Part shown: positions 3,838-64,000 of the stretch, one piece after another | Numbering within the stretch: the first letter of the stretch is position 1 | Layout of the letters: each line of letters begins with the position of its first letter | Assembly (NCBI GenBank): GCA_964537935.1 | Contig: CAZICT010000002.1 | Coordinates: forward strand, 12,922 to 76,921 | DNA length: 64,000 nucleotides | From: an uncultured Candidatus Saccharibacteria bacterium | GTDB lineage: Bacteria; Patescibacteriota; Saccharimonadia; Saccharimonadales; CAZICT01 | Direction: 5' to 3' | Translations under genes and position numbers: made by a program | The notes under the pieces: generated by a model | The model's input: the letters and a program-made list of their open reading frames with translations, nothing else | Databases searched by the model: none | What the model was told of the DNA's origin: nothing

Positions 3838-3934
3838 ATATTCATCCTATCACCTTTATCAAAAAGCGCGTATTTAATACAACCGAATTATCTTAAGCGG
3901 TATTAGAACGGCTACGGATTTCGTTATCAATCCT

Positions 3935-13963: not shown

Positions 13964-16342
13964 TTAGTAGTAGTACCAATTCTCAACGCTATTGGTATCT
14001 GTAACATCAACTATCTTTACCGGGTCACCACCGTCAGTGCTCATAGCATAATCAGCCGTTTCTTCTCCGGTAAGTACTCTATAAACAACCGTGGTGTTGT
14101 TAAGCCACCGAACCGGTGATTTTAAGCCACTGTCGGTTCGTATTACCTGGTCTTCTTTAGACTCTATGTCATAAGCCAGTAACACGCCCTTGCCGTCCCG
14201 ATTATCCACCCAAAGACCCTTATTACCTCTGGGATTCATGGCATAAGTTTTTGATACAAGAGAACCCGGCTTGTTGATTTTTCCCGGCGCACTCGAATCA
14301 TCGAGTCGATATTCATACCATTCCTGTTGCAATGCCAGGGTGAGCTTGTCGTAACTTAAGCGAAACATATTCCACACTTCTTTCTTCATAATTGTGCGTC
14401 GATCACTTCCGTCAGCATTGACTCTGAATAATCCAACCTCTTCTTTAGGCGTATAGGCCGCGGCGGGCGCGTATATAACTTTGTTATCCGCCACTGTCAC
14501 ATCGTTAAAGTGATTGCTAGCTGCTAGCTCGACTACGGCTTCATTTGATACGTCGTAGCTCATTAAACGATGACGCTTTGGGTTGACCGCGCTGGCCCCA
14601 TCAACAACCTGTACATAAATAAGTTTATTTTCAATCCAGCCAATTACCTGAACCCTTTCTGAGCGACTTATGACCTTATTGCTGTTGTCACTCAGATCAA
14701 TCACGGTGAGAGCGCTAAGCAAAAAACCGTCTTCATTGCGCCTATTATCTCTGGTTGAAACAAAAGCCACATATTCTTCAGTCGGGTGAGGATTAATGGT
14801 TATATCTTCGCGCTCACTGCCTGTTCCCGGTAATACCAAGGCTTCGTTTTTGCCGTCAATGTCTATCTTATACAGATCAAATGTACCGGAGCGTTTTGAG
14901 ACAAAAACATGTTTACGCCCGGCCACCATCTTTAGCTGACGTTCAGATTGGTCATCAAGATTAATCGTAAAACTCTCCTTCCGGTAGCCCTCGGCGGTTA
15001 TAACTACCTCTGCGGTCTGTTCATAAGATTCGTCAATCGTCAGAATTATCTTTCCTTTCTCATCGGCAACGGCGCTGAATTCGTCGCTTTCCGCTTCTGC
15101 TTCAGCCACCGGATTTCCTGAAAGATAATCAGTTAATACAAAGGTGTACTGGCTGCCTGTCGGCACAAGTTCGTAGTCACCGAGCGGATTACTGCCCCAC
15201 CCAATCGTTATCTTGCTAATGACCGGTGCAAATGCCCGTCTATGGATTTTTAACTCTGAGCTTCCAAGGCGAAGATGATCAAGCTTTACAATCCCATCCT
15301 GATTAGTAACTGATTCAACTCCAGCCAAACTGACTTTCACGTTTTTTAAAGGCTGTTGGGAGCTTTTATCAATTACCCTCAGAGAAGCAGAACTTCGCAC
15401 ACCCACATTATTTAAAACAAAATATCTGCTTGCTGGGACCGTAGCTGCACCCGCCAGACCTACAAAAAGTAAAGCCAGCAGCCCTATCCGCACTGATTTT
15501 TTACGGAAGAAATTGCCTAGCTTGGATCTCAATGAACGCTTCTGGGCCGGCTGAAAAGCGGCAGCTAATTTCTCGTCTTCGGCAGCGAGTAGTTCGTCGC
15601 TTTCCTTTTCGACAATATCCTCAACTGCTTTTTCTGTCTTTGGATCTTTTATAATCTCCTCTGTTTTGGTATGTTCGACTTCCGGCTCGGTATCATCTTC
15701 GGGCTGCTCATCCTCAGTTGTGGCTTCGGTTTCTTCAGGAGCTTCCTCTTCCTCTGTTACTCCTTTGGTTTCATTAAGCAATTGTTTGTTTAGTTCTTTG
15801 ATTGTTTCGTCAAGATTATCGTCCGGCTCTTCAGGTGATTCTTCCGCCTGTTCTTCAGACTCTTCTGTCTCTTCTGTCTCAACCGGCTCATCCGCCGTCA
15901 GATCATCGGACGCTTCAGTCAATTCCTCATCTTCATCAGTATCTGCCTCTTCTTCTGATACTGCCTCGGATTCAGTATCAATGTCTTCAGCTTCCTCATC
16001 TTCATCAGACATCACTTCAACCGTAACTTTTTCTGGAGGAGTTGCAACCGTTTCTTCCTCATTAGGCTCTGTTTCGGCTTCATCTTTTGATTTATCGTCT
16101 TGGTCAGATTTATCTTCTAGATCGGTGTGGTGAATAATTTTGATGCTTTTTCTCTGGGAGGGCAATATCGGTGCGCTTGACGCCTCTTCTTCATCAGTTT
16201 GTTTGGTAGTTTTCTTTGAGACAGACCTCTTCGCAGGGCGGTCCGGTTCAAGCATTTCATGGACGCGTTTTTCCAGTTCTTCCTGATTTTCACCAGCAAC
16301 AATATCTGGTTTTCGTTCTTCGTCGTTTTTCTTCTTTTTCAT
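13964..16342 (-). CDS. Large surface protein: acidic cytoplasmic N-terminal region, one TM, CarboxypepD_reg-like beta-sandwich(es) and a TolB/PD40-like beta-propeller
   Basis: About 285 aa of D/E-rich low complexity, then a basic stretch + TM (VRIGLLALLFVGLAGAA). After that come segments such as LRVIDKSSQQPLKNVKVSLAG..TNQDGIVKL, then repeated DG/propeller-like blades. Confidence 0.65.
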   Translation of the reverse strand: MKKKKNDEERKPDIVAGENQEELEKRVHEMLEPDRPAKRSVSKKTTKQTDEEEASSAPILPSQRKSIKIIHHTDLEDKSDQDDKSKDEAETEPNEEETVATPPEKVTVEVMSDEDEEAEDIDTESEAVSEEEADTDEDEELTEASDDLTADEPVETEETEESEEQAEESPEEPDDNLDETIKELNKQLLNETKGVTEEEEAPEETEATTEDEQPEDDTEPEVEHTKTEEIIKDPKTEKAVEDIVEKESDELLAAEDEKLAAAFQPAQKRSLRSKLGNFFRKKSVRIGLLALLFVGLAGAATVPASRYFVLNNVGVRSSASLRVIDKSSQQPLKNVKVSLAGVESVTNQDGIVKLDHLRLGSSELKIHRRAFAPVISKITIGWGSNPLGDYELVPTGSQYTFVLTDYLSGNPVAEAEAESDEFSAVADEKGKIILTIDESYEQTAEVVITAEGYRKESFTINLDDQSERQLKMVAGRKHVFVSKRSGTFDLYKIDIDGKNEALVLPGTGSEREDITINPHPTEEYVAFVSTRDNRRNEDGFLLSALTVIDLSDNSNKVISRSERVQVIGWIENKLIYVQVVDGASAVNPKRHRLMSYDVSNEAVVELAASNHFNDVTVADNKVIYAPAAAYTPKEEVGLFRVNADGSDRRTIMKKEVWNMFRLSYDKLTLALQQEWYEYRLDDSSAPGKINKPGSLVSKTYAMNPRGNKGLWVDNRDGKGVLLAYDIESKEDQVIRTDSGLKSPVRWLNNTTVVYRVLTGEETADYAMSTDGGDPVKIVDVTDTNSVENWYYY

Positions 16343-22207: not shown

Positions 22208-22258
22208 ATATTCGCACAACGCGCTCGTGCTTGTCAACAGATTTACTGACTTTATTAA
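22208..22258. promoter_or_regulatory. Face-to-face divergent promoter candidates sharing one -35 region
   Basis: Minus strand: TTGACA (22237-22232), 18-nt spacer, TGcGAATAT (hexamer 22213-22208). Plus strand: TTGTCA (22231-22236), 16-nt spacer, TATTAA (22253-22258). Confidence 0.3.
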
Positions 22259-22299
22259 GAGGTTTGTCATATGATGATGCCGCCGTTACAATTACAGTT

Positions 22300-24840
22300 A
22301 TGCTTTATTATCAGCAGCGTATTGAGGAAGTGCTCATTAACCTCAATACAACGGAGCACGGGCTCACAAACCAACAAGTAAAAGCCAACCTAAAACGCTT
22401 TGGACCTAACACTATTAAAGTCAAGTCCGAACCGCTTTGGCGAAAAATTATCGAACCGTTCGTCAACGTCTTCATGGCTGTTCTGTTTGTGGCGGCATTT
22501 ATCAGTCTGGCCAAAAAAGAGCCATTAGACGCTACGATTATTTTTGTCATCATAAGTGTTAGCGCGCTTATATATTATGTGCAAAGATTCTCGACCGAAC
22601 GTATTTTAAGGGCATTGCAGCGACGGGAACGTCAAGCTGTTGAGGTAATAAGAGACGGCAAATCAGTTGAAATATCCTCTGAAAAGATAGTGCCTGGCGA
22701 TATATTGGTCCTCCACGAAGGCGAAAAATTACCAGCTGATGCGCGACTAATTCATGTCGATGGCCTGCGCTGTGACGAATCTCTTTTAACCGGCGAATCA
22801 TTGCCAATCAGCAAACAGGTGCAACCGCTAAAAAAAACTAGCGAAGTCTATGAGCAAAGCAATATGGTCTTTCAGGGATCATTTGTAGTCTCCGGTGAAG
22901 CTAGGGCGGTAGTCACTGCAACCGGAAATAACACGCAGTTTGGGCGGCTGGCAGTTTTATCCGGAGAGCCAAACACCAGCAGTCCGGTACAAAAAAAGAT
23001 CGATAAGCTGATAAGTAAGATTGTTATCGCTATTTTTCTGGTTTCGCTTTTGGCCTTTGGATTGGCATTGTATCGGGGCATGGAGATTGCCGAAGCTGTC
23101 CGGTTTGTATTAGCCCTGGCAGTATCTGCGGTGCCAGAGGGTCTACCGGTTGCGATATCTGTAATCCTAGTGCTTGGCATGCGCCGGATGGCCAAGCATA
23201 AAGCACTGGTAAGGAGCATGCAAGCGATTGAAAATACCGGGGTCATCACTACTATCGCTACTGATAAAACCGGTACCTTAACCAAAAACCTTCTTACCGT
23301 CCAACGAACCTGGCAATTGGATAAAAAAGTCGATGAGGCATCATTTGCCCGCCATATCCTGTTAGCGACAAATCACAATAACAACAAATCACATGATCCG
23401 CTTGATACGGCGATGCAGGCCTTTGCCAGCAAACATAAGGCCACTCTTCCCCGGGACTTTACCCAGGTAGCCAATATGCCTTTCGATCACAGCTTTGCAA
23501 TGAGCGGAAATGTCTGGTCTACAAAATCCGGCCATTTGGCGGTGATAAAGGGCGCTCCTGAGCATGTATTAGCCCGATCAAAATTAAATAAAAAGTCTCT
23601 GGAGGAAGCCCATCATATGTTGTACTCATTGACCGGCCAGGGATTTCGGGTTATTGCTGTTGCGCATGCTGAACTTTCAGGAGCAATAAAAAATTTGAGT
23701 GAACTACCGAAGAAAAATTTGGTTTTTGATGGTTTTATCGCTGTCGCCGACGAACTCCGAAGGACCTCAAAGTCGGCTGTGGCTGCCGCCCAGGCCGCCG
23801 GCGTAACTGTGCGGATGATTACCGGTGATCACTTCGAAACCGCCTTTGCCATTGGAAAACAGCTTGGCATGGTAGAGCATCGCAATCAGGTGTTTGATAG
23901 CCGCAAATTGGCAGAATTATCTGACAAGGAGTTGTCACGAATTATCAAAGATGTCCGGGTTTTTGCGCGCGTTATCCCTGAACACAAACACCGGATTTTG
24001 TCTCTGTTAAAAAAGCATGACGTTACGGCTATGACCGGTGATGGCGTCAACGACGTGCCCGCTCTCACGAATGCTCATATCGGTATTGCCATGGGCGCCG
24101 GTACGCAAATTGCCAAGGAAGCCGGTGACATAATTTTGCTTGATAATGACTTTAAGAGCATCGTAACGGCAATTCGTGAAGGCCGGATTATCTTTAATAA
24201 TATCCGTCGAATGCTGTTTTATCTGCTGGCTACAAGTTCAGGCGAGGTACTTACAATGCTAGGAGCTCTAATCATTGGATTGCCGCTGCCGATTGTAGCC
24301 GTTCAGATCTTATGGATTAACCTAGTCACAGACACAATTATGGTTATACCCTTAGGCCTAGAGCCTGGTGAAAAACATATAATGAAACGTAAGCCGCGAC
24401 GCCCCGAACAACCGATTCTCGATCCGTTTATCATATCCAGAATGTTATTGATTGCTTTAACTATGGCCATAACCACCTTGATAGTATTCAATTACTTCCG
24501 CAGTTTTTCTTCCATCGAATACGCGCGCTCAATTGCCTTCAGCATACTCGTAGTGATGCAGTGGGCAAACGCCTTTAATGCAAGGAGTGAAGTGGATTCG
24601 GTCTTTACACGCTTAAGGGTTATGAATAGTAAGTTCTACGTCGGTCTCGCCATAGCCGTTACTGTCCAGATGCTCGCCATGTTCGGGCCGCTACGAAACA
24701 CTCTACATGTTGTGCCGGTTAGTGGTATGGACGTTGTAACTACCGGTATTATCGGAACTGCGGCAGTTCTAGCTGTCAGTGAAATACATAAGCTTGTCGG
24801 TCGTATGCTCAAGTCACACCGTCAACTTAAATATAGATGA
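22300..24840 (+). CDS. Cation-transporting P-type ATPase (P2-type, Ca2+/Mg2+-like)
   Basis: TGES, PEGLP, phosphorylation site DKTGTLT and the hinge MTGDGVNDVPAL. The ATG at 22300 gives the canonical N-terminus (..EEVL..L.T...GLT..QV...L..FGPN). The ORF-track TTG at 22231 is less likely. Confidence 0.9.
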   Translation: MLYYQQRIEEVLINLNTTEHGLTNQQVKANLKRFGPNTIKVKSEPLWRKIIEPFVNVFMAVLFVAAFISLAKKEPLDATIIFVIISVSALIYYVQRFSTERILRALQRRERQAVEVIRDGKSVEISSEKIVPGDILVLHEGEKLPADARLIHVDGLRCDESLLTGESLPISKQVQPLKKTSEVYEQSNMVFQGSFVVSGEARAVVTATGNNTQFGRLAVLSGEPNTSSPVQKKIDKLISKIVIAIFLVSLLAFGLALYRGMEIAEAVRFVLALAVSAVPEGLPVAISVILVLGMRRMAKHKALVRSMQAIENTGVITTIATDKTGTLTKNLLTVQRTWQLDKKVDEASFARHILLATNHNNNKSHDPLDTAMQAFASKHKATLPRDFTQVANMPFDHSFAMSGNVWSTKSGHLAVIKGAPEHVLARSKLNKKSLEEAHHMLYSLTGQGFRVIAVAHAELSGAIKNLSELPKKNLVFDGFIAVADELRRTSKSAVAAAQAAGVTVRMITGDHFETAFAIGKQLGMVEHRNQVFDSRKLAELSDKELSRIIKDVRVFARVIPEHKHRILSLLKKHDVTAMTGDGVNDVPALTNAHIGIAMGAGTQIAKEAGDIILLDNDFKSIVTAIREGRIIFNNIRRMLFYLLATSSGEVLTMLGALIIGLPLPIVAVQILWINLVTDTIMVIPLGLEPGEKHIMKRKPRRPEQPILDPFIISRMLLIALTMAITTLIVFNYFRSFSSIEYARSIAFSILVVMQWANAFNARSEVDSVFTRLRVMNSKFYVGLAIAVTVQMLAMFGPLRNTLHVVPVSGMDVVTTGIIGTAAVLAVSEIHKLVGRMLKSHRQLKYR

Positions 24841-24901
24841 GTTCGTTATTGATAATTAGATGCTGTAAAATGATCAAATAGATAGGTAGTTGAAAATAAA
24901 T

Positions 24902-26599
24902 ATGCATAATATTTTTCCTGAGCTCAGTATTGTCATAGCCATAGGCGCAGGAATCGCCTTGCTTATGCACGTTCTTAGGCAGCCGCTGATAGTAGGGCAT
25001 ATTCTCACCGGCGTTGTCGTTGGTCCGGCGGTATTCAATATAATTCAGGAAGAATCCGCCTACTCTACTCTTAGCAACTTAGGGATCGCCCTGCTGCTGT
25101 TCATTATTGGACTTGATGTAAGCCTTAGGGTCTTTTCACGGCTTCGGCATAGTATCTTTATTTCTACCGCAATGCAGGTTGTCGGTATATCCGGTCTTGG
25201 ATTTTTTACTTCGCGGCTGCTTGATTTTGGCAGGATGGAATCGGCCATATTGGGGCTTGGCTTGGCACTCAGCAGTACCGTAATTATCGTAAAACTACTT
25301 AACGACAAGCGCGAAATTACACGTTTGTATGCCCAGATAACCATTGGTGTGCTACTACTGCAGGATGTTGTCGCTACCGCCGGCAAGATCGGTCTGGCTG
25401 CCCGCAGTGAAGGTGACAGTTTGGCTGAGATATTAATTTTGTTGGGCCGAGGAATCGGTGTGACGCTTTTGTTGTATATAGCCAGCCGCCATATAATTCC
25501 CCGTTTGACACGCTCTATCGAGAGCTCCAAGGAGCTTCTTCTGCTTTTCGCCCTTGGCTGGGGGCTTGGCATAGCTACCCTCTTTGAACGAACTGGATTT
25601 TCAATAGAAATCGGTGCTTTATTTGCCGGTGTTAGTCTTGCCAGCTTACCATACAGCCGCGAGATGGCGGCTCGTTTAAAGCCACTCAGAGATTTCTTTC
25701 TGATAATATTCTTTATAACTTTAGGTCAATCTTTGACTGCGGCCAACGCTCGGCAAGTGCTCGGTCCGGCCATTATACTCAGTGGTATAGTTTTGCTGGT
25801 TAAACCGATTATCACCATGACAAGCCTAGGGCTGATGGGTTACACCAAACGCACAAGCTTCAAGTCGGCAATATCACTAAGTCAGGTCAGTGAGTTTTCG
25901 TTGGTATTTGCAGTTTCGGCGCTTCATACGCACCTGGCAAGTGAGCGTGTCGTATTTACCCTAACTCTTACCGCTTTGATTACATTCATTGTGTCTGCGT
26001 ATCTGATTAAATATGATGACTGGCTGTACAAGCGCCTGGAGAAAAGACTCAGACTTTTTGAACGTCGGGTTACGAAACTGGAACAACGCGAAACCTTGCA
26101 GCAATACCCGGTAGTAATGTTCGGTTACAGGAAAGGTGGACGTGAGTTTATAAAAACCTTCAAGCGCCTTAAGAAGCGGTTTGTAGTCGTTGATTATGAT
26201 CCGGAGGTTATCGAACTCTTAGAGCGTGAGGAACACAACTATATTTACGGAGACGCTACTGATGTGGAACTATTAGACGAACTAAACCTTGATAAAAGCC
26301 AATTAGTCGTTTCGGTTGCCACTGACCTACACACAAACATCTCTTTGCTAACTTATCTTGAAAAGATAAATCCTAACGTCGTGTTTATTTGTTCGGCTGA
26401 TAATTATGAAGGCGCTGCCGAGCTTTATGGACTTGGAGCCAGCTATGTGATGATGCCGCACTACATCGGCAGTGAAAAAATCAGTTCGTTTATTCTACGA
26501 AGCGGCCTTAAGAAAACCGAATTCAAAAAATATCGTGAAAAACATCTTAATTATATCCGTGGCCATTTTGATATCGAAATGGCAGGCTGGACCAGCTAA
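24902..26599 (+). CDS. Cation:proton antiporter (CPA2/Kef-type) with a C-terminal RCK/TrkA-N-like domain
   Basis: About 12 TM Na_H_exchanger-like core followed by a soluble Rossmann-like domain (VVMFGYRKGGREF...VVVDYDPE). The first ATG is at 24902 (track TTG at 24890). Confidence 0.8.
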   Translation: MHNIFPELSIVIAIGAGIALLMHVLRQPLIVGHILTGVVVGPAVFNIIQEESAYSTLSNLGIALLLFIIGLDVSLRVFSRLRHSIFISTAMQVVGISGLGFFTSRLLDFGRMESAILGLGLALSSTVIIVKLLNDKREITRLYAQITIGVLLLQDVVATAGKIGLAARSEGDSLAEILILLGRGIGVTLLLYIASRHIIPRLTRSIESSKELLLLFALGWGLGIATLFERTGFSIEIGALFAGVSLASLPYSREMAARLKPLRDFFLIIFFITLGQSLTAANARQVLGPAIILSGIVLLVKPIITMTSLGLMGYTKRTSFKSAISLSQVSEFSLVFAVSALHTHLASERVVFTLTLTALITFIVSAYLIKYDDWLYKRLEKRLRLFERRVTKLEQRETLQQYPVVMFGYRKGGREFIKTFKRLKKRFVVVDYDPEVIELLEREEHNYIYGDATDVELLDELNLDKSQLVVSVATDLHTNISLLTYLEKINPNVVFICSADNYEGAAELYGLGASYVMMPHYIGSEKISSFILRSGLKKTEFKKYREKHLNYIRGHFDIEMAGWTS

Positions 26600-26608: not shown

Positions 26609-27202
26609 CTACAAAGGCTTATATAGCCCGTTTTTCATAATATAATCGATTACTGATAATTCGACTCCCGAAGCCTGACCGGTTTGCCTGATGCTGCGGC
26701 GAATGGCCGATGAGGATAATGAAGCCTGCGGCGCTTTGATTATGCTATAGCTTAGTCGCTCATTCTTGGCATTCTCAATGATTGATATTACTTCTTTAAT
26801 CGCCGTTTCAGATTTTTTGCGCCTGCCGATAACAAACTTGCAAGCCGTTATTAGTTGGCTGACATTCGGCCACGACACCAAACGTGATAACACATCGTCA
26901 CCAAACAGTAAGTATAATTCCGCCCCTTTAAAACGTTCCATCAAGTACGGTAATGTTTCCGAAACGGTATAGTTTGTTTGGTCAATCACGATGGTACCGA
27001 ATGGGGGAATCTGCTCGGTAGCCAATCGAACCATCTCCTGTCGGTGCTCTAGCGCCTTGACCCCTTGCTTGAGTCGCGGTCTAGGCTCGACCATAAAGAA
27101 AACCTTTTTCAGCTTACATTGCTCGTATGCGGCTTTTGCAAATTCCAAATGCCCTTTATGAATCGGGTTGAACGATCCGGCATAAATACCAATTCGATTC
27201 AT
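26609..27202 (-). CDS. nadD: Nicotinate-nucleotide adenylyltransferase
   Basis: GSFNPIHKGHL (H/T-x-G-H nucleotidyltransferase motif) and the C-terminal SSSAIR (ISST..R-like) motif. Its start overlaps the upstream stop by ATGA. Confidence 0.9.
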   Translation of the reverse strand: MNRIGIYAGSFNPIHKGHLEFAKAAYEQCKLKKVFFMVEPRPRLKQGVKALEHRQEMVRLATEQIPPFGTIVIDQTNYTVSETLPYLMERFKGAELYLLFGDDVLSRLVSWPNVSQLITACKFVIGRRKKSETAIKEVISIIENAKNERLSYSIIKAPQASLSSSAIRRSIRQTGQASGVELSVIDYIMKNGLYKPL

Positions 27203-27897
27203 GACGTGCGCTTAGGAAGCGTCTGGCTGGCTTGAGTTTTATGAGTCTGTAGCTGCAATAATACTGCCCGCAAAAACAGCCATAGGCCCACGAGTTCAAG
27301 CCCTTCTTCGACCACTACCAACCCAAAGTTATATAAAATACTCGCTTTATCCACCTGAATGGCTGCGTACTCCACAACTAAAGCTCCGGATAAATAAACT
27401 GCCGTAGCTATAAGTAACCGTTTTCGAAACCCGGACGGGAACAGTCGCCGCACATACAAGCCGGCCGCCACCAAACCAATTACTATAAACGGCAGTACTA
27501 ACAGCCAGGCATTTTGAGTGAAGGTTTGCTCTTCGCCGAATTGAGCTAATATGTGCAGACCCTGAAGCGCTAACTCGTGAAGCGCCGCCATCTCATCCAG
27601 GGAAATCATCAAACCGATAAATGCCAGCAGCTGCCAACCTTTAGTAATTTGTGGCGAAGATTCTCGATGAGCTGCCAGCCAAGCTATGGCAGCCGAAGCA
27701 AGAGCCAGCATTGATGCAAACCATGTAGGTATGCTTAGTTCGTTATCGAGACCGAACCTTGCCGCAACATCATTAACAAACAAATTTTGCGGGCCAACCA
27801 TACGTGCTACTGCCTGCATTGAAATATGAAATATGATGAGCAGCCCAACAGCCAGCAGTAATCCGTTTAAAATTCGTGTGTAATCATGCTTTATCAT
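27199..27897 (-). CDS. Uncharacterised polytopic membrane protein, family A (paralog of 62565..63263)
   Basis: 232 aa with about 6 TM helices. Conserved acidic motifs DNELSIPTWF, SLDEMAALHE and EEGLELVG are shared with the second copy. Confidence 0.65.
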   Translation of the reverse strand: MIKHDYTRILNGLLLAVGLLIIFHISMQAVARMVGPQNLFVNDVAARFGLDNELSIPTWFASMLALASAAIAWLAAHRESSPQITKGWQLLAFIGLMISLDEMAALHELALQGLHILAQFGEEQTFTQNAWLLVLPFIVIGLVAAGLYVRRLFPSGFRKRLLIATAVYLSGALVVEYAAIQVDKASILYNFGLVVVEEGLELVGLWLFLRAVLLQLQTHKTQASQTLPKRTS

Positions 27898-28068
27898 TTA
27901 AATGTCTTGGGGAATTCCTTCACAGCATTTTGTGGGCATTTTGCAGGCTGGGCACACGAAGTGACCATGAACCGGCTCAATCGGATAATGGCCGCAGTGG
28001 TCGCAGAAAAATTCTATAGGTTTATCCTTGAGTGTTTCTTGGTATGCAGTTCGCTCTTCGTCTGTCAT
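27898..28068 (-). CDS. Small zinc-ribbon protein (56 aa, MTDEERTAYQETLKDKPIEFFCDHCGHYPIEPVHGHFVCPACKMPTKCCEGIPQDI); below the ORF-track cutoff
   Basis: ATG at 28068, stop TAA at 27900-27898 directly abutting the ATG of the next gene at 27897. CxxC (CDHC) ... CxxC (CPAC) spacing is typical of a zinc ribbon. Confidence 0.5.
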   Translation of the reverse strand: MTDEERTAYQETLKDKPIEFFCDHCGHYPIEPVHGHFVCPACKMPTKCCEGIPQDI

Positions 28069-28164: not shown

Positions 28165-28374
28165 TCAAGTTCTATTTACGGTTATTTTACACTTAGGACA
28201 ACTTATGGTCGAAGGCGTGAGGATAGCGTCAACTATCTCTTTGCAAAAAGGGCAAGTCACGCACGGCATGAGGTTCGGATTATCAGCCGCTATTCGATTG
28301 TGATCGATGTCGCACAGACCGTCACAGTCGGCTTTTTGGTGTTCATACTGCTCTTTGGTTAAATCCTGATTCAT
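28165..28374 (-). CDS. Small zinc-ribbon protein (69 aa)
   Basis: CPFC ... CPKC pair plus three further Cys. The gene starts 4 nt after the stop of the 381-aa gene. Confidence 0.55.
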   Translation of the reverse strand: MNQDLTKEQYEHQKADCDGLCDIDHNRIAADNPNLMPCVTCPFCKEIVDAILTPSTISCPKCKITVNRT

Positions 28375-28378: not shown

Positions 28379-29524
28379 TTAGCACTTTACGCTAATGCCG
28401 CAAACTTTGCATCGTGGAATTAGTTTATTGCGAGGCCGTTGATTTTGATGTCCCTTAGGACACTCGAAAGTCAAAGATCCGTACTGGTCCTCACCGGCCT
28501 CAGTCGATTGATTTCCGTAACCTGCCTCTTCAAGTTGTGAGGCTGCATCAAACCCTTCTCCAGGGGCACCGGCAGTAATACCGCAACCGCTGTATGATTT
28601 GCCTGTGGCGCGAGCTTTTTCGCCGGCTCTTGTCATTTCATCCATAGCCATAACATGGGCCACTATCCCTATGTCATAATCATCATGCTTCAAAGAATAC
28701 GGCCGTGATAGGTGATTACGGAAACGCGCTTCCATAGCTGCCGCCAAATTATAGTCCTTCTTATTTCCGGTAAAACCGTTTGTCGTGGCCAAATAAGCGT
28801 TTAGTAAATCAGTTTGACTTCTGGCAAAATCATAGGTATTCCGTCGCTCACCGTTAAGCTGGCCAGCATGCCACTGACCACCGTATCGTACAGCAAGTTG
28901 ACGATCATAAACTCCGGTTAATTCGTCTATCAAAAACTCCTGCTCTGTCTCATCCAGCTCGATATGCATACGTTGACCCAATAGCTCGCCGGGCTGTGCA
29001 TCGTGCCCAAGGTGCCGATACAGCGCCTCAAGCGCCTGGCGATCGCTGCCATCAAGTGACTGGGAATACATCTTTAGCGTACCTCCAGGGGTCTTGGCTA
29101 AGACGCGCAGCATAGTCTGCTTCCGAGTTACGTTGTAGCCGCCGACATCTTTTGTCGCCGTCATAAGTTCAGACGGAAAATCAGACACAACAACCATAGT
29201 ATTTGGTAAGCTACCCCGCATCATGTCCACCATTTCGTTATATTCTTGTTTTTCGGCTTTACGACGACGTAGCTCAAACGCCAAATCCTCAGGCATTTCT
29301 TCAGCTTCACGAACAGCCGTATCGAATATTTCGGCTAACTTGCCGCCATCGACGGCATAAAGTTCCTGGCCATCAAAGCTATATTCAAACGGTGTTCGCA
29401 TGCTGCCTGGCAAAACTTCTGCCAGCCAGGTGACAGTGTCAAAGTAGCGGCGTTTCTCATAATCAAACGCATCTTCCTCTATTCGTAAACGTTCCGGTGA
29501 CGCTTGCAAAATAAAAACCCTCAC
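28379..29524 (-). CDS. Uncharacterised 381-aa protein with a C-terminal zinc ribbon
   Basis: Long ORF ending in ECPKGHQNQRPRNKLIPRCKVCGISVKC (CP..H ... CxxC). The track start (GTG at 29524) lies inside the upstream hairpin. The in-frame TTG at 29509 has GAGGG 8 nt upstream and may be the real start. Confidence 0.65.
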   Translation of the reverse strand: MRVFILQASPERLRIEEDAFDYEKRRYFDTVTWLAEVLPGSMRTPFEYSFDGQELYAVDGGKLAEIFDTAVREAEEMPEDLAFELRRRKAEKQEYNEMVDMMRGSLPNTMVVVSDFPSELMTATKDVGGYNVTRKQTMLRVLAKTPGGTLKMYSQSLDGSDRQALEALYRHLGHDAQPGELLGQRMHIELDETEQEFLIDELTGVYDRQLAVRYGGQWHAGQLNGERRNTYDFARSQTDLLNAYLATTNGFTGNKKDYNLAAAMEARFRNHLSRPYSLKHDDYDIGIVAHVMAMDEMTRAGEKARATGKSYSGCGITAGAPGEGFDAASQLEEAGYGNQSTEAGEDQYGSLTFECPKGHQNQRPRNKLIPRCKVCGISVKC

Positions 29525-29541
29525 TTTCCGAGCGAGGGTTT
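29505..29541 (-). terminator. Intrinsic terminator / SD-sequestering hairpin (expression platform of the upstream leader)
   Basis: Minus strand reads AAACCCTC-GCTCGGAAAGT-GAGGGTTT (29541-29515), followed by TTTTATTTT. The 3' arm contains GAGGG and the GTG at 29524. Confidence 0.6.
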
Positions 29542-29553: not shown

Positions 29554-29650
29554 GTAACTCCGCTCCTGCTCGGGAGACTTACTTGTTGCTGTATCGGACT
29601 TTAACCGTTGCGGCACAGTGTGGGAGTTTCACCCACTTCCAGCTTTTTAT
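29554..29650 (-). promoter_or_regulatory. Candidate cobalamin riboswitch aptamer (short, class-II / AdoCbl-variant-like)
   Basis: Minus strand 29643->29588 reads GCUGGAAGUGGGUGAAACUCCCACACUGUGCCGCAACGGUUAAAGUCCGAUACAGC. It has a closing helix GCUG/CAGC, hairpin GUGGG-UGAAACU-CCCAC, hairpin ACUGU-GCCGCA-ACGGU and a B12-box-like AAGUCCGAUAC. The match to the family consensus is from memory only. Confidence 0.5.
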
Positions 29651-29676
29651 TTGTTAAATGGTTGCCTAATTAGTAG

Positions 29677-29738: not shown

Positions 29739-30455
29739 CTACTTGGCACGGAAGCTTGCCAGCGCCTCGTATAAAATACTGTAGTTTGGCTGGATGTTGC
29801 GATCAATGTATACGAAGAAATAAGTATGCTCGCCGCCTGAAACACCGCGTATAGAAGTAGTATTCACCGGACTGCCTACCGTACCGGTTCCAACAACATT
29901 GTCGACAACATTCTCAAGGTTACATATAAAATTAACTTCTTGCCACTTGGCTGGCGAAGGCCGCTTCTTAACCGCCTCACGAGTATTAAGCGTTCCGCCA
30001 TCGGTAAACGTCGCACAGTTATCTGACACATTAGCGTAATTAATACCATTACCTTGAGCCTTTATAGGCAATAATCGGTTAAGTGGTTTATCAGACGGTA
30101 TCGTATCGACGTAAAGTGTAAGCATTCTATTGTCGTGACCTTCTCTGGTGGCTTGCCAGGTAATACTGTTTTCATTCCGCGTATTACGTCGTTCAACCTC
30201 TTCCCAGTCACCAGGCAACTCAAATGTATACAACGGTTCATCAATCGTATAATGTAATACCGCTTCGCTTAATACCTGAGATACGACTCGTGCATCACCC
30301 TCCACCGTTGGTGAAACCCGCCGCTTTATATCTATATAAATAACTCCGCCTATAATTCCAAGAATAAAAGTAGACAGCACAATCACTAACAGCGCCTTGC
30401 GCGGCCGACGCTTTCGGGAAATCTTGTAGCCGTATTTGTAGGTGGAGGAGCTCAT
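29739..30455 (-). CDS. Hypothetical membrane-anchored protein (238 aa)
   Basis: SD GGAGG 6 nt upstream of the ATG at 30455. Basic N-terminus + TM (ALLVIVLSTFILGIIGGVIYI), then a globular ectodomain. Confidence 0.6.
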   Translation of the reverse strand: MSSSTYKYGYKISRKRRPRKALLVIVLSTFILGIIGGVIYIDIKRRVSPTVEGDARVVSQVLSEAVLHYTIDEPLYTFELPGDWEEVERRNTRNENSITWQATREGHDNRMLTLYVDTIPSDKPLNRLLPIKAQGNGINYANVSDNCATFTDGGTLNTREAVKKRPSPAKWQEVNFICNLENVVDNVVGTGTVGSPVNTTSIRGVSGGEHTYFFVYIDRNIQPNYSILYEALASFRAK

Positions 30456-30592: not shown

Positions 30593-31231
30593 CTAGTTGA
30601 CAATGACTAATATATCGGTGTTTTCAGGAACGGTCTCGCCTTCCGGCAAGTCGCCTATTTCTCCGTCAACTGCTTTTGCTACTGCCTCTGCCTGCTCTTG
30701 GTTTTCGCCGCTTACATCTACCACGCGAATTTCACTGAGATCTGATTTCGCCATCCCGCCTTCGGTTGCGCTGATTTGGACATTAGCCAGTTTGGCAACG
30801 GCTTCACCTCTTTTGCCACCGGGGCCAATCACGGTAACGCGTGCGCTTTGGATTGAAACGGTGCTTACATTAATAAGCTTTTTTGTACTGGGACGATATA
30901 AAATAGCGAGGCTTGCATCAGTATAAATAAGTGTCACGTCACCATTCTCGGCCTGTGCAAAAAATTCCTGTCCGGCCAGTTGATCTTTGTCTTTAACGGT
31001 TGCTACGCTGGGCTCTTCGTCCGCCGGCAACGAATAAAGCTCGCCGACCTCGCGTACATAGCGGTCAACTTCTGCCTGTGCTGCCTGTTCGGCCGGTAAA
31101 GGATTGTTTTTTAAATCCTGATACTGTTTAAAGTAGTAGCCCCCGAAAATCGCCAGTCCAATAAGCGGTAACGCGTACAGCACTACAAATATTGCTTTTC
31201 TTGATTTACTAGCGCGGTAATCTTTTGCCAT
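30593..31231 (-). CDS. Membrane-anchored protein with a possible LytR_C-like C-terminal domain
   Basis: N-terminal TM. The C-terminal segment (VTVIGPGGKRGEAVAKLA...VVDVSG..QEQAEAVAKAV) resembles LytR cell-envelope-related C-terminal domains. The resemblance is weak. Confidence 0.45.
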   Translation of the reverse strand: MAKDYRASKSRKAIFVVLYALPLIGLAIFGGYYFKQYQDLKNNPLPAEQAAQAEVDRYVREVGELYSLPADEEPSVATVKDKDQLAGQEFFAQAENGDVTLIYTDASLAILYRPSTKKLINVSTVSIQSARVTVIGPGGKRGEAVAKLANVQISATEGGMAKSDLSEIRVVDVSGENQEQAEAVAKAVDGEIGDLPEGETVPENTDILVIVN

Positions 31232-41526: not shown

Positions 41527-41611
41527 CTACCACTAACTCCCAATCACCAATTCCTCAACACCCTTACCCATTCATTATCTACTACCTTCTAACTACTAAT
41601 TCCTACTTCCT
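41527..41611 (+). other. 85-nt G-free, C-rich tract (34 C, 0 G); candidate Rho-utilisation or other unstructured RNA element
   Basis: Direct count of 41527-41611 gives no G and 40 percent C. Internal quasi-repeats CTAACT x2 and AATTCCT x2. It starts 4 nt after the vapC stop. Confidence 0.4.
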
Positions 41612-42055
41612 GTGGCCTAGGGCTTGGTTTATACGGGTAGAAGAGTCTCGCTTTTCCACTTTGTGACTGCCCACACCAAACACCATTTCTATGTTGCACT
41701 CAATGCATGCTTGAGTTTCATTTTCTGGCAAAGCGTGTTTGTTTGGGTCACGATCACCGCCATTGGCAAAGATAAGCTCATCGTCAGGATATTTTTCACG
41801 TATTTTATGAAGCGTAACTGCTTGGCTCGCGTCTTCATCGGCACAAAGCATTACTTCGTCTACAAGTCGCAAAGACCGCATAAGCCGCATACGATTATCT
41901 TCGTCGAGTATGATCTTACCTTTCTTCATTATCTGTTGTTTGTCATTATTAACTATAACCACCAGCTTATCGCCCATTGCAGCCGCTGCTTCAATCATGT
42001 CTAAATGACCACCGTGCAATGGATTAAAGTAACCGCTCACAATCACTACCTTCAT
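41603..42055 (-). CDS. Cytidylyltransferase-like nucleotidyltransferase (HldC/RfaE-domain-II or TagD-like)
   Basis: MKVVIVSGYFNPLHGGHLDMI contains the H-x-G-H motif. 150 aa, single domain. Confidence 0.8.
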   Translation of the reverse strand: MKVVIVSGYFNPLHGGHLDMIEAAAAMGDKLVVIVNNDKQQIMKKGKIILDEDNRMRLMRSLRLVDEVMLCADEDASQAVTLHKIREKYPDDELIFANGGDRDPNKHALPENETQACIECNIEMVFGVGSHKVEKRDSSTRINQALGHRK

Positions 42056-59504: not shown

Positions 59505-60689
59505 CTATTCACTCCATTGATGCTCTAGTTTTGTAATTCCTCCCCATTTGTCATCCTTGGTAGACCTTATAATTAATCTTGGGCCTTTATCTATAAATTC
59601 GAAAGCTTCGTCTTCCGTATCGCCAAAAAGTCCAAAAACCAGATTATACTCCCCTTCTCCTAGATTAAGCTTGAGTTGGTATTTTACTTTTTGATTCTTA
59701 ATATGAAATTTATCAATAATAGTATTGGTTCCATACACATATTCGCCCGTACTTTTTAGCAAAGCTATCCCTATGTTCTTAATAGAGGACTCGCCCCAGC
59801 TGACTTCAACACTTACTTGCTCTCCATGCATAAATGAGTTTTTAAGCTTTCCCCTAGAATCTGCAACTCTATACTTGAATTGCCATTCTTTAATTTTTTG
59901 ATGCTTCTCCAACTTAGCATCATTGTCCTGTTGATATGCCAGGTATTTATCTTCGTTAAGGCGCGCATACTGTCTGGCAACCTGCCTAGGACTTCCTGAG
60001 GTCTGAATTTTACCCCTATCAATTAGAATGGCTTTAGTGCAATACTTTTCTACGACCGACATGTCGTGAGTGACCAAAATTATAGTTTGCTTATTTGCCT
60101 TATATTCGTCAAAAACGCTTATACACTTTTTTTGAAACGCTTGATCGCCGACAGCCAATACCTCATCAAGAAGGAGTATGTCACTTTTCGATTGAATAGC
60201 TATAGAGAATGCCAAACGAACCTGCATACCTGAAGAATAATTTTTAAGCTTTTGATCCATAAACTGGCCTAGTTCAGCAAACTCTACAATACTGTCATAC
60301 AAGCCTTCCACCTCCTTGCGGCTAAAACCAAGTAGTGCGCCGTTCAAAAATACATTTTCACGACCTGTAAGTTCTGGATTAAAACCGACACCAAGTTCGA
60401 TGAAAGGTGTTAGCGTTCCATTAATTGCTATTTTGCCCTCATTAGGCTCATAAATGCCCGCAAGCAGCTTTAGTAGTGTGCTTTTGCCACTCCCATTACG
60501 CCCAACAATACCAAAAAAGTCTCCTTTATTTATCTCGAGCGACACATCGTTTAAGACTTTCTGACGCTCATACGTCCTATTGCCACGAAACATATTTACA
60601 AAAAGACTTTTAATAGAGGTTTGTTTTTCGTGAGGAAGCTTAAACTCTTTACTTACATTTTCGACCTTAATAGCAATGTCTTCTTCCAT
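59505..60689 (-). CDS. wzt: Polysaccharide/teichoic-acid ABC exporter ATP-binding protein with a C-terminal Wzt_C-like carbohydrate-binding domain
   Basis: Walker A GRNGSGKST, signature YSSGMQVRL and Walker B ILLLDEVLAVGD, plus a roughly 140-aa beta-rich C-terminal extension. Confidence 0.85.
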   Translation of the reverse strand: MEEDIAIKVENVSKEFKLPHEKQTSIKSLFVNMFRGNRTYERQKVLNDVSLEINKGDFFGIVGRNGSGKSTLLKLLAGIYEPNEGKIAINGTLTPFIELGVGFNPELTGRENVFLNGALLGFSRKEVEGLYDSIVEFAELGQFMDQKLKNYSSGMQVRLAFSIAIQSKSDILLLDEVLAVGDQAFQKKCISVFDEYKANKQTIILVTHDMSVVEKYCTKAILIDRGKIQTSGSPRQVARQYARLNEDKYLAYQQDNDAKLEKHQKIKEWQFKYRVADSRGKLKNSFMHGEQVSVEVSWGESSIKNIGIALLKSTGEYVYGTNTIIDKFHIKNQKVKYQLKLNLGEGEYNLVFGLFGDTEDEAFEFIDKGPRLIIRSTKDDKWGGITKLEHQWSE

Positions 60690-60692
60690 ATC

Positions 60693-61496
60693 TTATAAGT
60701 TCTCCGCAAAACTGGTAGATTCTTTTCTGAAATATAAGAGTCCTGTTACAAACACTCCTAACACAATACAATAAACGCCGAATCGTATAGCTCCAGTTTC
60801 GAAGAGTCGTGATATTGTCAGTGTCTGGTTAGTTACAACCATATATCTAGCATCTTGAACCGCTTGTGCCATTGGATTTAGCAAAAGTGCTTTTTGGGCC
60901 GTCTCGTTTGCGATGACTGTTAAAGGATACAAAATAGGTGTTCCATAAAATCCTGCCTGCAAAACTACTTCCCAGATATAACTTACATCTCTATATTTGA
61001 CAAAAGCAGCCGCCAAAAAGAGCGAAATCCCGAGGGCAAATATATATATCTCTATGAGAATGAGAGGAAATAGAACTACATAGCCTGTTACATCAACTCC
61101 ATTAATAAATAGAAAAATTGTAACTACTATTAAATTAAAGCCAAGGTTGATGAGAGCCGAAATACTGCTTGAAAATACAATCATCCACCGGGGAATGCGT
61201 ATTTTGCGAATAAGATCTCCTCTGGCAACTATGGAGCTGAGACTTTGACTTGTCATGTCAGCAAAGAAATTCCAGAGAACGATCCCAAGCAATAAGTAAA
61301 TCGGAAAATGAGGAACATCCCCACCAATACGAAGAAACTTTACAAAAACTATATACAGAATAACAAACAGCAGCAATGGCCGGAGTAGTGACCAGGCATA
61401 TCCTAAAACCGAACCCTGATATCGTAATTTGAAATCAGTGCGAACAAGCTCGGACAGCAGTGCTCTATTCTTCTTAGAAAATACGTGTTTGAACAT
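60693..61496 (-). CDS. wzm: ABC-2 type polysaccharide exporter permease
   Basis: 267 aa with 6 TM helices and the N-terminal F..RY.GS.LG..W....P motif typical of Wzm/TagG. Its stop lies 4 nt upstream of the wzt start. Confidence 0.85.
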   Translation of the reverse strand: MFKHVFSKKNRALLSELVRTDFKLRYQGSVLGYAWSLLRPLLLFVILYIVFVKFLRIGGDVPHFPIYLLLGIVLWNFFADMTSQSLSSIVARGDLIRKIRIPRWMIVFSSSISALINLGFNLIVVTIFLFINGVDVTGYVVLFPLILIEIYIFALGISLFLAAAFVKYRDVSYIWEVVLQAGFYGTPILYPLTVIANETAQKALLLNPMAQAVQDARYMVVTNQTLTISRLFETGAIRFGVYCIVLGVFVTGLLYFRKESTSFAENL

Positions 61497-61538: not shown

Positions 61539-62528
61539 ATGAATATTTCTGTTGTAATTCCCAACTGGAACGGAAAAGATGAGATTGGTAAGTGTATAGA
61601 CTCTTTACTTACTCAAAGCCTTGAGCCGCACATTATAGTTGTAGAGAATGGCTCTACTGATGGATCCCTGGAGTTTTTACAGAAAAACTACCCACAAATT
61701 GAACTCGTAGTTAATCAAAAGAACTTAGGTTTTGCTGGTGGAGTAAACTCTGGTATCCAAAGAGCACTAGACAGCGGAGCGGAATACATCGCACTATTAA
61801 ACAACGATGCGGTGGCTGATAAAGATTGGCTGAAACATTTGGCTGCCGTACTTGATGAGCACCCAAAAGTAGGTATAGCTACCTGTAAACTACTAAACGC
61901 TGATAAATCCCGTGTAGACAGTACTGGCGACTTCTATACCACATGGGGCTTGCCATACCCAAGGGATCGAAACGTTTCCGCCGAATCTGCCCAAAACAAA
62001 GCAGGCGAAGTGTTCGGCGCTTCTGGCGGCGCCAGTATTTATCGTACAAGCATGCTTCGTGAAATTGGATTATTTGATAAAGATTTTTTTGCTTACTACG
62101 AAGACGTCGATATAAGTTTTCGAGCCCAACTGGCCGGCTGGAAAGTGTTTTATGAACCAAAAGCTGAAGCCTACCATCAGCAAGGTGTATCGAGTAATAA
62201 AATCAAGGGTTTCACCACATATCAAACATTCAAGAACTTTCCCTTGCTTTTCTGGAAAAATATTCCAGGTAAACTTATGGCAAAAATTCTTCCCCGCTTT
62301 ACCTTTGCGTATCTATCTATTTTAGTTAGCTCAGTATTTAAGGGACGAAGCTGGCCAGCCTTCAAAGGCTTGATCGTGTCACTATTTTTACTGCCTAAAA
62401 AGCTCCTGGAGCGCCGACGCATTCAAAAAAACCGTAAGGTATCTGTAGGATATATTGAGTCTATATTAGTTAGTGACTTGCCCCCCAACGCAACAAAATT
62501 ACGAAAAGTCAGAGCTTGGTTTACGTAA
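61539..62528 (+). CDS. Glycosyltransferase family 2 (rhamnosyltransferase-like)
   Basis: ISVVIPNWNG, VVENGSTDGS, LNNDA and the late YYEDVD motif. Confidence 0.85.
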   Translation: MNISVVIPNWNGKDEIGKCIDSLLTQSLEPHIIVVENGSTDGSLEFLQKNYPQIELVVNQKNLGFAGGVNSGIQRALDSGAEYIALLNNDAVADKDWLKHLAAVLDEHPKVGIATCKLLNADKSRVDSTGDFYTTWGLPYPRDRNVSAESAQNKAGEVFGASGGASIYRTSMLREIGLFDKDFFAYYEDVDISFRAQLAGWKVFYEPKAEAYHQQGVSSNKIKGFTTYQTFKNFPLLFWKNIPGKLMAKILPRFTFAYLSILVSSVFKGRSWPAFKGLIVSLFLLPKKLLERRRIQKNRKVSVGYIESILVSDLPPNATKLRKVRAWFT

Positions 62529-62564: not shown

Positions 62565-63263
62565 ATGCGGATGAGTGAATTAAAGTTAGACTCTACTAAG
62601 TTAATCAAATTTTTGATAGCATCCGTAATAACCTTGCTGCTGATACATATTGTTTTGCAGTACGCTTATCATATTCATGGCATAGAAATCCTCTCTACAA
62701 TACGCGGACGATTTGACGTAGATAATGAAATAAGTATTCCAACCTGGTTTTCGCAGGTGCTCCTTCTGGTACCTGCGGCTTTGAGCTTCCTGCTATACGC
62801 TACAGTCCGTAATAATACTGATAATTCACGTTTTTATTGGGCGTTGTTGGGGTGTCTGTTTATATTTCTTTCGGTTGATGAAGGCGCAATGCTGCACGAA
62901 GCATTCATTACTAAGTTTAGGGAATGGACCGTAAGTCCAGAAACCACCGGTATCGGCCAACACACCTGGTTGATTCCGGTAGCTATTTTACTAATAATTC
63001 TTTCGGTTCCATTTATTAAACTCTTGAGGAGCTTGCCTCGTAAAACTGCTTTGATACTTACATCCGGCCTGGCACTTTATGTATTTGGAGCCATTGTTTA
63101 TGAAACGCTTGGATTAGTACTCGTTTCTGGGGAATTTGCCTACCAAGGCCTTAACGTAGCATTCGAAGAAGGACTCGAGATGCTCGGTGTTATTGTCATA
63201 ATTCATGCAATACTCAGCCATATTAAGCTCAAGGTTGACACTTTTAAGGTCAGGATTTCTTAA
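62565..63263 (+). CDS. Uncharacterised polytopic membrane protein, family A (paralog of 27199..27897)
   Basis: Also exactly 232 aa. It shares DNEISIPTWF, SVDEGAMLHE and EEGLEMLG motifs with the first copy, in the same order and spacing. Confidence 0.65.
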   Translation: MRMSELKLDSTKLIKFLIASVITLLLIHIVLQYAYHIHGIEILSTIRGRFDVDNEISIPTWFSQVLLLVPAALSFLLYATVRNNTDNSRFYWALLGCLFIFLSVDEGAMLHEAFITKFREWTVSPETTGIGQHTWLIPVAILLIILSVPFIKLLRSLPRKTALILTSGLALYVFGAIVYETLGLVLVSGEFAYQGLNVAFEEGLEMLGVIVIIHAILSHIKLKVDTFKVRIS

Positions 63264-64000
63264 GGTTATTTCTTTTATTCAGGCTCACTATCGAAATACC
63301 GGCGAGACCCCACCAGGTGTAAGCCACGGCTTCGTTGGACCAAATGTGGACCAGTAGATTGGTAAACAAAAGCCCAACCAGGCTTGCCAGTAACGCGGCC
63401 GCTAACATTTGCTGGCTATGCCACAATCGATAAGCAACAACCCCTACGATACTCAAAAACAAAACCAAACCAATAATTCCCACTTCGGTAGCAATTTGGA
63501 GATAATAATTTTCATTTAGAATCGTACCCTGGGTTTGGTTACGGATTGACGCCAGCCCGGCCGTGCCCGGACCACTACCCTCCGGATTATCGACTATTAT
63601 TTCAACCGACTCCTGGAAAAAACGTGTTCTCAGCTGGTTAGGGTCTTCCAAAACGGTGCTTTCATCAGCGTGAAAGATGACATTTTGCACAAAATAGCTG
63701 TCACGCACTCCGGCAAGCCCTAAACTACCAACGACCAGTGTTACTGCCGCGGCTACCATTACTTTCTTTTTATGTCTTAAAACAAAATGTTTAAAAGGAT
63801 TGTCACTGACGACCCCCAACACGACCATAGCTAACACAAAGCCTAGCCAAGCGCTGCGCGAAAAAGTAAACCAAAGGCATAAGACAGTTAATAGGTAATA
63901 ACCAGGAATTAATAACTGAGCGTTAATGGGCGGTGTGCGAGATGGCTTTCTTTTCTTTAACCAAAACATTGCTGACGGAATCAGCGTACCAATAACAATC
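63250..64000 (-). CDS. O-antigen ligase / polymerase family protein (Wzy_C domain), C-terminal part; the gene continues beyond the window
   Basis: FSRSAWLGFVLAMVV motif and multiple TM helices. The reading frame stays open upstream of the Met at 63969 up to the window edge. Confidence 0.7.
   Translation of the reverse strand, partial: IVIGTLIPSAMFWLKKRKPSRTPPINAQLLIPGYYLLTVLCLWFTFSRSAWLGFVLAMVVLGVVSDNPFKHFVLRHKKKVMVAAAVTLVVGSLGLAGVRDSYFVQNVIFHADESTVLEDPNQLRTRFFQESVEIIVDNPEGSGPGTAGLASIRNQTQGTILNENYYLQIATEVGIIGLVLFLSIVGVVAYRLWHSQQMLAAALLASLVGLLFTNLLVHIWSNEAVAYTWWGLAGISIVSLNKRNNLKKS

Follow-up and report, generated by a model that had tools for sequence, protein, structure and literature searches.

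Two paralogous Saccharibacteria membrane proteins from a family with an outward-facing acidic site

What is the function of two small, related membrane proteins when one is encoded behind a predicted cobalamin (B12) riboswitch and the other lies among glycan genes? The question is raised by a stretch of 64,000 nucleotides (the window) from contig CAZICT010000002.1 of an uncultured Candidatus Saccharibacteria bacterium, in which the genes termed here copy A and copy B encode the two proteins. A reading of the window made from its letters alone (the sequence-only reading) had described them as old paralogs with conserved intramembrane acidic motifs and had likened one of the motifs to that of the Ftr1/EfeU iron permeases. 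Saccharibacteria and other members of the candidate phyla radiation (CPR) depend on host cells for their living and have very small genomes, and little is known of their uptake of cofactors and metals. Both proteins belong to a large family whose most conserved residues face outward and may serve in the uptake of cations.

Paralogy and extent of the family

Both open reading frames (ORFs) are present at the positions and on the strands given by the sequence-only reading (Table 1). When aligned by BLASTP over their full length, the two proteins share 72 identities in 232 positions (31%) and 52% positives (89 bits, E = 3e-26), which is far beyond chance, and copies A and B are beyond doubt true paralogs. 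The four motifs that had been listed for both in one order, RFxxDNE(L/I)SIPTWF, S(L/V)DExAxLHE, W(L)(L/I)P, and EEGLE(L/M)xG, all align and match near-invariant columns of the family. The low identity agrees with the earlier view that the copies are old paralogs and not a recent duplication, as does a neighbor-joining tree (no bootstrap) in which the copy-A and copy-B clades are sisters within Saccharibacteria, separate from other phyla. Members from other phyla score higher with a hidden Markov model (HMM) of copy B than with one of copy A; these scores, together with the tree, mark copy B as the generic form and copy A as a Saccharibacteria-specific duplicate. The length of exactly 232 amino acids (aa) that had been reported for both holds for ORFs read from the first ATG, but public gene calls place the start of copy B two codons downstream and give a protein of 230 aa (P0165); the equal length is therefore partly an artefact, because it is decided by the choice of start codon.

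A word-indexed search recovered no more than 16 and 24 relatives, of which one bears the name Candidatus Saccharibacteria. When HMMER was run exhaustively with a profile of 16 sequences, 10,941 representative clusters (50% identity) were matched at E ≤ 1e-3, 7,416 of these at E ≤ 1e-10. Members occur in Saccharibacteria, other CPR, Gammaproteobacteria, Alphaproteobacteria, Myxococcota, Acidobacteria, Chloroflexi, Planctomycetota, Spirochaetes, Bacteroidota-like organisms, and Deinococcus, the taxa represented including Nitrosococcus, Polyangiales, Chitinophagaceae, Binatia, Acidobacteria, Spirochaetaceae, Dehalococcoidia, Tepidisphaeraceae, Deinococcus, and Rhodobacter. In their sources, all are named “hypothetical” or “uncharacterized.” Both copies fall short of the cut-off of every Pfam and NCBIfam family, so that no mapping to a well-characterized Pfam family was found, and the same is true in Pfam of ten diverse members and of all 102 members of an alignment of the family (A2). 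No literature on the family was found.

Conservation is described here for these 102 sequences with the residue numbers of copy A. H107 is the sole invariant column, and another 15 columns are at least 90% conserved (E53, P57, W88, D101, E102, E108, W131, L153, P154, G171, E176, E197, E198, E201, and G204). As a working definition, the family comprises proteins with six transmembrane (TM) helices and both termini inside the cell (N-in/C-in) that have E53, D101-E102, H107-E108, E176, and E197-E198-x-x-E201; both copies bear every one of these elements and match the family profile with E-values of 1e-63 or better.

About a quarter of the closest representatives (37 of 150; e.g. P0026, P0029, and P0061) are tandem fusions with two matched stretches. 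They consist of two complete units, in total ∼440–660 aa, and keep all of the motifs in both halves. The frequency of these fusions implies a parallel dimer, and a unit with an even number of TM helices that is often fused is typical of small channels and carriers. Within the single unit, comparison of helix pairs and halves by hhalign revealed no internal 3+3 or 2+2+2 repeat. Some members are extended in other ways: P0057, P0160, and P0233 have an additional N-terminal multi-helix region with a P-x-DPKNA-x-x-x-G-x-S-x-x-R motif, and P0203 and P0209 have a C-terminal seventh helix and a domain of ∼110 aa that is expected to lie outside the cell. None of these N- and C-terminal extensions matches a Pfam family.

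Topology and the outward-facing acidic site

The order of the helices is identical in confident AlphaFold2 models of copy A (predicted local distance difference test 82.1, predicted template modeling score 0.80) and copy B (93.5 and 0.90, respectively). Across the 102 sequences, segments rich in Lys and Arg (the N terminus, 77–86, 148–160, and the C terminus) alternate with acidic segments that are poor in these residues (31–55, 101–130, and 180–190). This family-wide distribution of charge shows that the protein has six TM helices with an N-in/C-in topology, and the alternation places all of the conserved carboxylates and H107 on the outer side. The near-invariant carboxylates are eight in number (E53, D101, E102, E108, E176, E197, E198, and E201), with D51 usually present as well, and are found at the start of TM2, the end of TM3, in a surface helix, and in the outer turns of TM5 and TM6; the inner half of the membrane contains no conserved polar residue in the 102 sequences. 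The description of the motifs as intramembrane was thus right as to conserved acidic residues, but these are not spread through the membrane and all lie at or near its outer interface with water. In the first outer loop, a conserved D-x-E comes after an amphipathic helix. In each subfamily the most conserved segment is the DE..HE surface helix (mean column conservation 0.86 and 0.90), and it is a plausible specificity element because it is the best conserved part within subfamilies yet differs between them; the copy-A subfamily has its own highly conserved outer helix and loop.

A structural counterpart was sought with Foldseek, in the PDB with both models and in BFVD, and no match had E < 0.09; in the PDB, the best E-values were 0.19 and 0.4, with TM-scores of no more than 0.39 against natural proteins. 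The weak matches, which were to G protein-coupled receptors, rhodopsins, trichodiene synthase, and bundles of the ferritin-like type, resemble the noise to be expected of helix bundles in general. No match below E = 0.1 came from sequence-profile searches of the PDB with alignments A1 and A2, and Pfam and Foldseek searches against the PDB gave no sequence or fold signal for the CobS, BtuM/ECF S-component, GT-C, PAP2, or CPBP families. As measured by the lack of a model, a name, a solved relative, or literature that could be found, the family therefore stands outside every known kind, although its function may prove conventional.

ExxE motifs and outer rings of carboxylates are usual cation-selecting devices, as in Ftr1, PmrB, MCU, and Orai, which serve here as analogies only. 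We consider it fairly probable that the conserved acidic and histidine residues bind metal of some kind, as judged from their conservation and placement. The use of such an outward metal-cation site for cation uptake by a parallel dimer is the explanation that we favor, tentatively; it is ranked first because of the pattern of fusions, the i/i+4 ExxE face on TM6, and the presence of cation transporter genes in the neighborhood of some members (see below). In such a mechanism the carboxylates and H107 would form an outward-open pocket for hard metal cations (of the Mg2+, Mn2+, Co2+, Fe, or Ca2+ type), and the parallel dimer, acting as a channel or small carrier, would capture external cations and move them into the membrane or through it; selection and binding would take place at the DE....HE element and on the ExxE face of TM6. 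Copy B would be the generic, constitutive form, and copy A, arising from an old duplication inside Saccharibacteria, would have kept the same site while having its own conserved outer surface helix. The acidic loop of CorA, the DxxE of MCU, and E106 of Orai resemble this arrangement in that acidic residues are gathered at the outer mouth with little polar lining deeper, and in the oligomeric state that the fusions imply; the analogy is functional only, since there is no similarity of sequence or fold and the family has far more conserved carboxylates per protomer.

The sequence-only reading had reached the idea of cation or metal handling from the resemblance of EEGLE to the REGLE motif of Ftr1 and EfeU. 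The idea itself appears reasonable in view of the outward-facing cluster of eight carboxylates and a histidine that the sequences predict, but the connection with iron permeases did not hold. The possibility of divergent iron permeases of the Ftr1/EfeU type, in which EEGLE would be a modified REGLE, is supported solely by the likeness of the motifs, a Glu-x-x-Glu placed inside a TM helix near the outer face and plausibly able to handle hard metal cations; ExxE motifs bind iron in Ftr1 and PmrB. The family nevertheless has one EExxE motif (in TM6) and not two, its first residue is Glu, not Arg, in 99% of the 102 members, the protein has six helices versus seven and an N-in orientation, and EfeO, EfeB, Fet3, and other multicopper oxidase partners are absent from ∼19 genomic contexts. 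No FTR1 match was found in Pfam at E ≤ 10 and BLASTP found nothing. An hhalign comparison of the family profile with Escherichia coli EfeU, rebuilt from the K-12 pseudogene, gave a probability of 2.1% and did not pair EEGLE with REGLE; BLASTP was run against this EfeU as well. Homology with Ftr1/EfeU is accordingly rejected as extremely improbable.

The proteins could also be truncated or divergent O-acyltransferases of the acyltransferase-3 (AT3, PF01757) family, which are often found in O-antigen clusters. Sub-threshold Acyl_transf_3 matches recur in 12 of the 102 members (best E = 5.8e-7) and are far more numerous than those to any other membrane family, one relative has a precomputed PF01757 match, and the location of copy B in a glycan cluster is of the type known for AT3. 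However, the best scores are 18.9–25.1 bits against a cut-off of 31, only about one-third of a profile of ten TM helices is covered as compared with the six helices of the family, and the register is not constant: copy A residue 178 falls on profile position 231, and residue 179 of a copy-B-like protein falls on position 173. Because they are sub-threshold and their registers disagree between subfamilies, the matches are regarded as helix-composition noise. The invariant residues also differ, being carboxylates and not the His/Arg set generally known for AT3. TM1 has a His (H24) in 76% of members, and any equivalence of this residue to the catalytic His in TM1 of the AT3 domain would be conjectural. 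An AT3 origin thus appears very improbable.

Genomic contexts and a possible envelope enzyme

The locations that had been reported for the two genes, copy A in a riboswitch-associated operon and copy B between a GT2 glycosyltransferase gene and a gene for an O-antigen ligase-like protein, are both correct (Table 1). Outside the copy-A operon, the family genes mostly stand alone with unrelated neighbors, and no conserved operon partner was found outside Saccharibacteria in ∼18 contexts. The clearest operon association outside Saccharibacteria is on plasmids of Deinococcus taeanensis and Deinococcus ficus (L041 5668–6447 and L043 5662–6462), where a gene for a full-length family member ends an rfbF-lhgO-SDR-rfbC-SAF sugar-nucleotide operon that sits in a GT4 glycosyltransferase cluster. 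A PAP2 phosphatase gene is next downstream of one Saccharibacteria member, and in several genomes BacA/UppP is encoded a short way upstream of the copy-A operon. The window has, between its BacA gene and the riboswitch, two ORFs, at 29739..30455 (−) (238 aa) and 30593..31231 (−) (212 aa), that match no Pfam family; counterparts of similar size are present at the same place in related genomes.

Table 1. Positions of the two paralogs and of associated features in the window
Feature	Coordinates	Strand	Description
Copy A	27199..27897	−	232 aa from first ATG; six TM helices; Saccharibacteria-specific riboswitch-operon subfamily
Copy B	62565..63263	+	232 aa from first ATG; paralog; generic form of the family
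Cobalamin (AdoCbl-II) riboswitch aptamer	29581..29654	−	Rfam RF01689, 36.7 bits versus gathering score 36.5
Terminator-like hairpin and T-run	29515..29541	−	Right after aptamer; 11-pair stem AAACCCTCGCTCGGAAAGTGAGGGTTT, then TTATTTT (consensus scan)
Gene X	28379..29524	−	∼376–381 aa, cytoplasmic; C-terminal CxxC...CxxC zinc ribbon; first gene past riboswitch
ZnR1	28165..28374	−	69-aa Cys-rich ORF; optional operon member
ZnR2	27898..28068	−	56-aa Cys/His-rich protein; stop abuts copy-A ATG
NadD (nicotinate-nucleotide adenylyltransferase)	26609..27202	−	4-bp overlap with copy-A stop; Pfam CTP_transf_like, 62.8 bits
Wzt/Wzm-type ABC glycan exporter	59505..61496	−	Pfam ABC_tran + Wzt_C, ABC2_membrane; adjoins copy-B locus
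GT2 glycosyltransferase	61539..62528	+	Pfam Glycos_transf_2, 90.5 bits; 36 bp upstream of copy B, same strand
Wzy_C (O-antigen ligase/polymerase-like)	63250..63969	−	Pfam Wzy_C, 55.6 bits; convergent, overlaps copy-B end

These contexts bear on another possible, if doubtful, explanation, that the proteins are metal-dependent enzymes with an outward active site that act on lipid-linked or envelope substrates (e.g. by hydrolysis or transfer of a group on an undecaprenyl-pyrophosphate-linked glycan), the cluster of carboxylates and His holding one or two catalytic divalent metals. It is placed a close second because so many invariant charged residues share one face and because some members are encoded in glycan clusters. 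Nine near-invariant charged residues on the outer face and none conserved inside form the pattern of a catalytic center; the position of copy B beside a Wzm/Wzt exporter, the Deinococcus operons, the PAP2 gene, and the proximity of BacA/UppP are all in keeping with work on a lipid-linked substrate. The amphipathic helix and D-x-E of the first outer loop also recall outer loop 1 of GT-C glycosyltransferases, by an analogy drawn from general knowledge, and members occur near lipid-carrier and glycan genes. The GT-C core, however, is far larger than these proteins, which resemble no known membrane enzyme (e.g. GT-C, PAP2, CPBP/Rce1, or UbiA) in sequence or fold. Furthermore, small membrane enzymes are not usually fused in tandem as frequently as here, the genes of most members stand alone, and glycan genes are so common that their presence in 3–5 of ∼19 contexts is a weak enrichment.

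Evidence of a similar type can be given for the favored role in cation uptake. Genes for cation transporters lie no more than two genes away in about 4 of 19 independent lineages: a Kef-type antiporter and a P-type ATPase (copy A), a CorA protein in the order MFS-member-CorA, a CNNM/CorC protein, and a heavy-metal P-type ATPase with MgtA (Rhodobacter). It should be noted that the counts of both the glycan and the cation transporter contexts were made post hoc and that neither is decisive. In the window, the genes adjoining the copy-A operon (22231..26599, +) encode a P-type cation ATPase of 869 aa and a Kef-type Na_H_Exchanger/TrkA_N antiporter of 569 aa, and in related genomes the block beside the operon includes a Fet4-like Iron_permease or CorA; it looks like a small cation-homeostasis neighborhood. 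Another Saccharibacterium (L011 5363–8697) has its family member in the DsbA-CBS-AspS synteny block of copy A, where its neighbors, encoded on its own strand, are CorA and a major facilitator superfamily (MFS) transporter, one on either side, and where NadD, X, and the small proteins are missing.

The copy-A operon and its riboswitch

On the minus strand, the copy-A operon has the order adenosylcobalamin (AdoCbl)-II riboswitch, terminator-like hairpin, X, ZnR1, ZnR2, copy A, and NadD, in which copy A is the sole membrane protein. Twelve distinct Saccharibacteria genomes with copy A were compared, of which 11 can be evaluated for the riboswitch, one contig ending short. In 10 of the 11, a riboswitch of the cobalamin clan (CL00101) lies 1.3–2.2 kb upstream on the same strand; it is above the gathering score in 8 genomes (the window and 7 others, with 36.4–48.7 bits in the seven), below that score at the same syntenic site in 2 more, and undetected in 1. 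The identity of the riboswitch is drawn from the Rfam score, synteny, and the platform, and its binding of ligand is a prediction. An Rfam scan found no riboswitch upstream of copy-B-type or non-Saccharibacteria members in ∼18 contexts, and NadD, X, and the small Cys-rich proteins were likewise absent from such loci among those compared. The hairpin is the probable expression platform, making this an OFF switch, and a riboswitch with a terminator ahead of copy A suggests that expression is probably lowered when B12 is plentiful. A promoter scan, with 7 sites found against 4.8 expected, was uninformative. A search of the literature for a B12 riboswitch in Saccharibacteria or Patescibacteria, or for one linked to nadD, found nothing relevant. 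Elsewhere in the window, an ORF of 792 aa (13964..16342, −) was considered as a B12-dependent ribonucleotide reductase and rejected, having no relative among PDB sequences at E ≤ 1e-5.

The partner proteins are largely without known relatives. Protein X has no match in Pfam, NCBIfam, PDB, PADLOC, or PHROGs, and an alignment from 10 genomes contains no recognizable cofactor motif; in PADLOC and PHROGs, none of copy A, copy B, X, ZnR1, and ZnR2 has a match at E ≤ 0.01. Orthologs or analogs of X (377–563 aa) hold the same position in all copy-A loci, with an N terminus that differs in length and sequence between genomes, the conserved blocks SDFPxE, GGYNxxRKQTMLRV, QSLDGSDRxALEA, and SGCG, and a C-terminal end of one of two alternative zinc-ribbon types. 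The terminator-like hairpin overlaps the listed GTG start of X (29524), and the true start is probably a TTG five codons later, which agrees with the 376 aa of the public calls.

Homologs of ZnR1 are found at the same position in three of the other loci (L024, L028, and L031). ZnR2 is the most conserved element of the operon, with a mean column identity of 76% in an alignment from 8 genomes, invariant C22, C25, H34, C39, C42, C48, and C49, and a consensus that includes SPEFFCDNCGHYPIEPVHGHFVCPACKMPTKCCEG. It belongs to no curated family and shows only weak zinc-ribbon and HypA-like similarity; a protein of this type (55 aa) is present in 8 of the 12 copy-A genomes and may be a metal-binding partner of copy A. 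A separate feature of locus L028 is a 33-nucleotide direct repeat in three copies (3554–3586, 3702–3734, and 3895–3927), which spans the 3′ end of a small Cys-rich gene (CCEGIPLD codons and stop) and in its last copy overlaps the start of the membrane gene. The GAAGGA common to the repeats looks like the ribosome-binding site of that gene.

NadD follows the copy-A-type gene in all 12 loci and in the window is assigned as an equivalog by NCBIfam TIGR00482 (113.8 bits versus a cut-off of 112.45). It is normally essential, and we know of no link between B12 and NAD synthesis. An essential NadD at the end of a string headed by a B12 riboswitch and terminator suggests that the switch only attenuates or that there is read-through or an internal promoter. 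A second cytidylyltransferase-like ORF in the window (41603..42055, −; 150 aa) matches a NadD-derived HMM with E = 1.9e-30 and is probably another member of the superfamily, e.g. CoaD.

B12 riboswitches in organisms that do not make B12 typically control uptake genes, and this raises the further explanation that copy A is a corrinoid permease, with scarce B12 turning on X, the Cys-rich proteins, and copy A, and with the Cys-rich proteins in the cytoplasm receiving or processing the corrinoid that copy A imports. The recurrence of the riboswitch and its terminator-like platform, the position of copy A as the only membrane protein of the operon, the outer helix and loop conserved specifically in its subfamily, and the high conservation of ZnR2 and its translational coupling to copy A are all consistent with such a function. 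As analogies, BtuM and the ECF S-components are also small six-helix membrane proteins, and BtuM, a small B12 transporter, uses a Cys ligand to cobalt. However, no similarity of fold to BtuM or the S-components was found by Foldseek, the family has carboxylates as opposed to Cys/His cobalt ligands, and a pocket of eight carboxylates is unlike the binding of B12 in known proteins. Copy B, like thousands of members that lack a riboswitch, has every one of the site residues of copy A, which points to a common chemistry that is not specific for B12. ZnR2 is absent from 4 of the 12 genomes, and the read-through or internal promoter suggested by NadD, which is essential and unrelated to B12, leaves the co-regulation of copy A a presumption. 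A corrinoid permease is therefore judged to be unlikely. The cobalamin synthase CobS was also considered and rejected, since there is no match to its Pfam model at E ≤ 10 and the conserved residues face outward and not toward the cytoplasm.

In a broader interpretation, copy A may belong to an acquisition system that responds to B12 and is new. In its full extent, in which the riboswitch, X, the Cys-rich proteins, and copy A would form an unrecognized system of this type in the ultra-small epibiont Saccharibacteria, and the wider family would consist of membrane transporters of a new structural class, lined with carboxylates, facing outward, and having no solved relative, this interpretation is speculative and in our estimation rather improbable.

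The significance of the family lies in its occurrence in many phyla and ∼11,000 clusters, in a confidently predicted fold that has no solved counterpart, and in a distinctive outward site in proteins that have no curated name. The copy-A operon adds to this a handle, through the presumed B12-dependent expression, on four uncharacterized proteins at once. If the family transports a cation or cofactor, it would be a new class of transporter; if it is an enzyme, it would be a new outward-facing membrane catalyst for envelope biogenesis.

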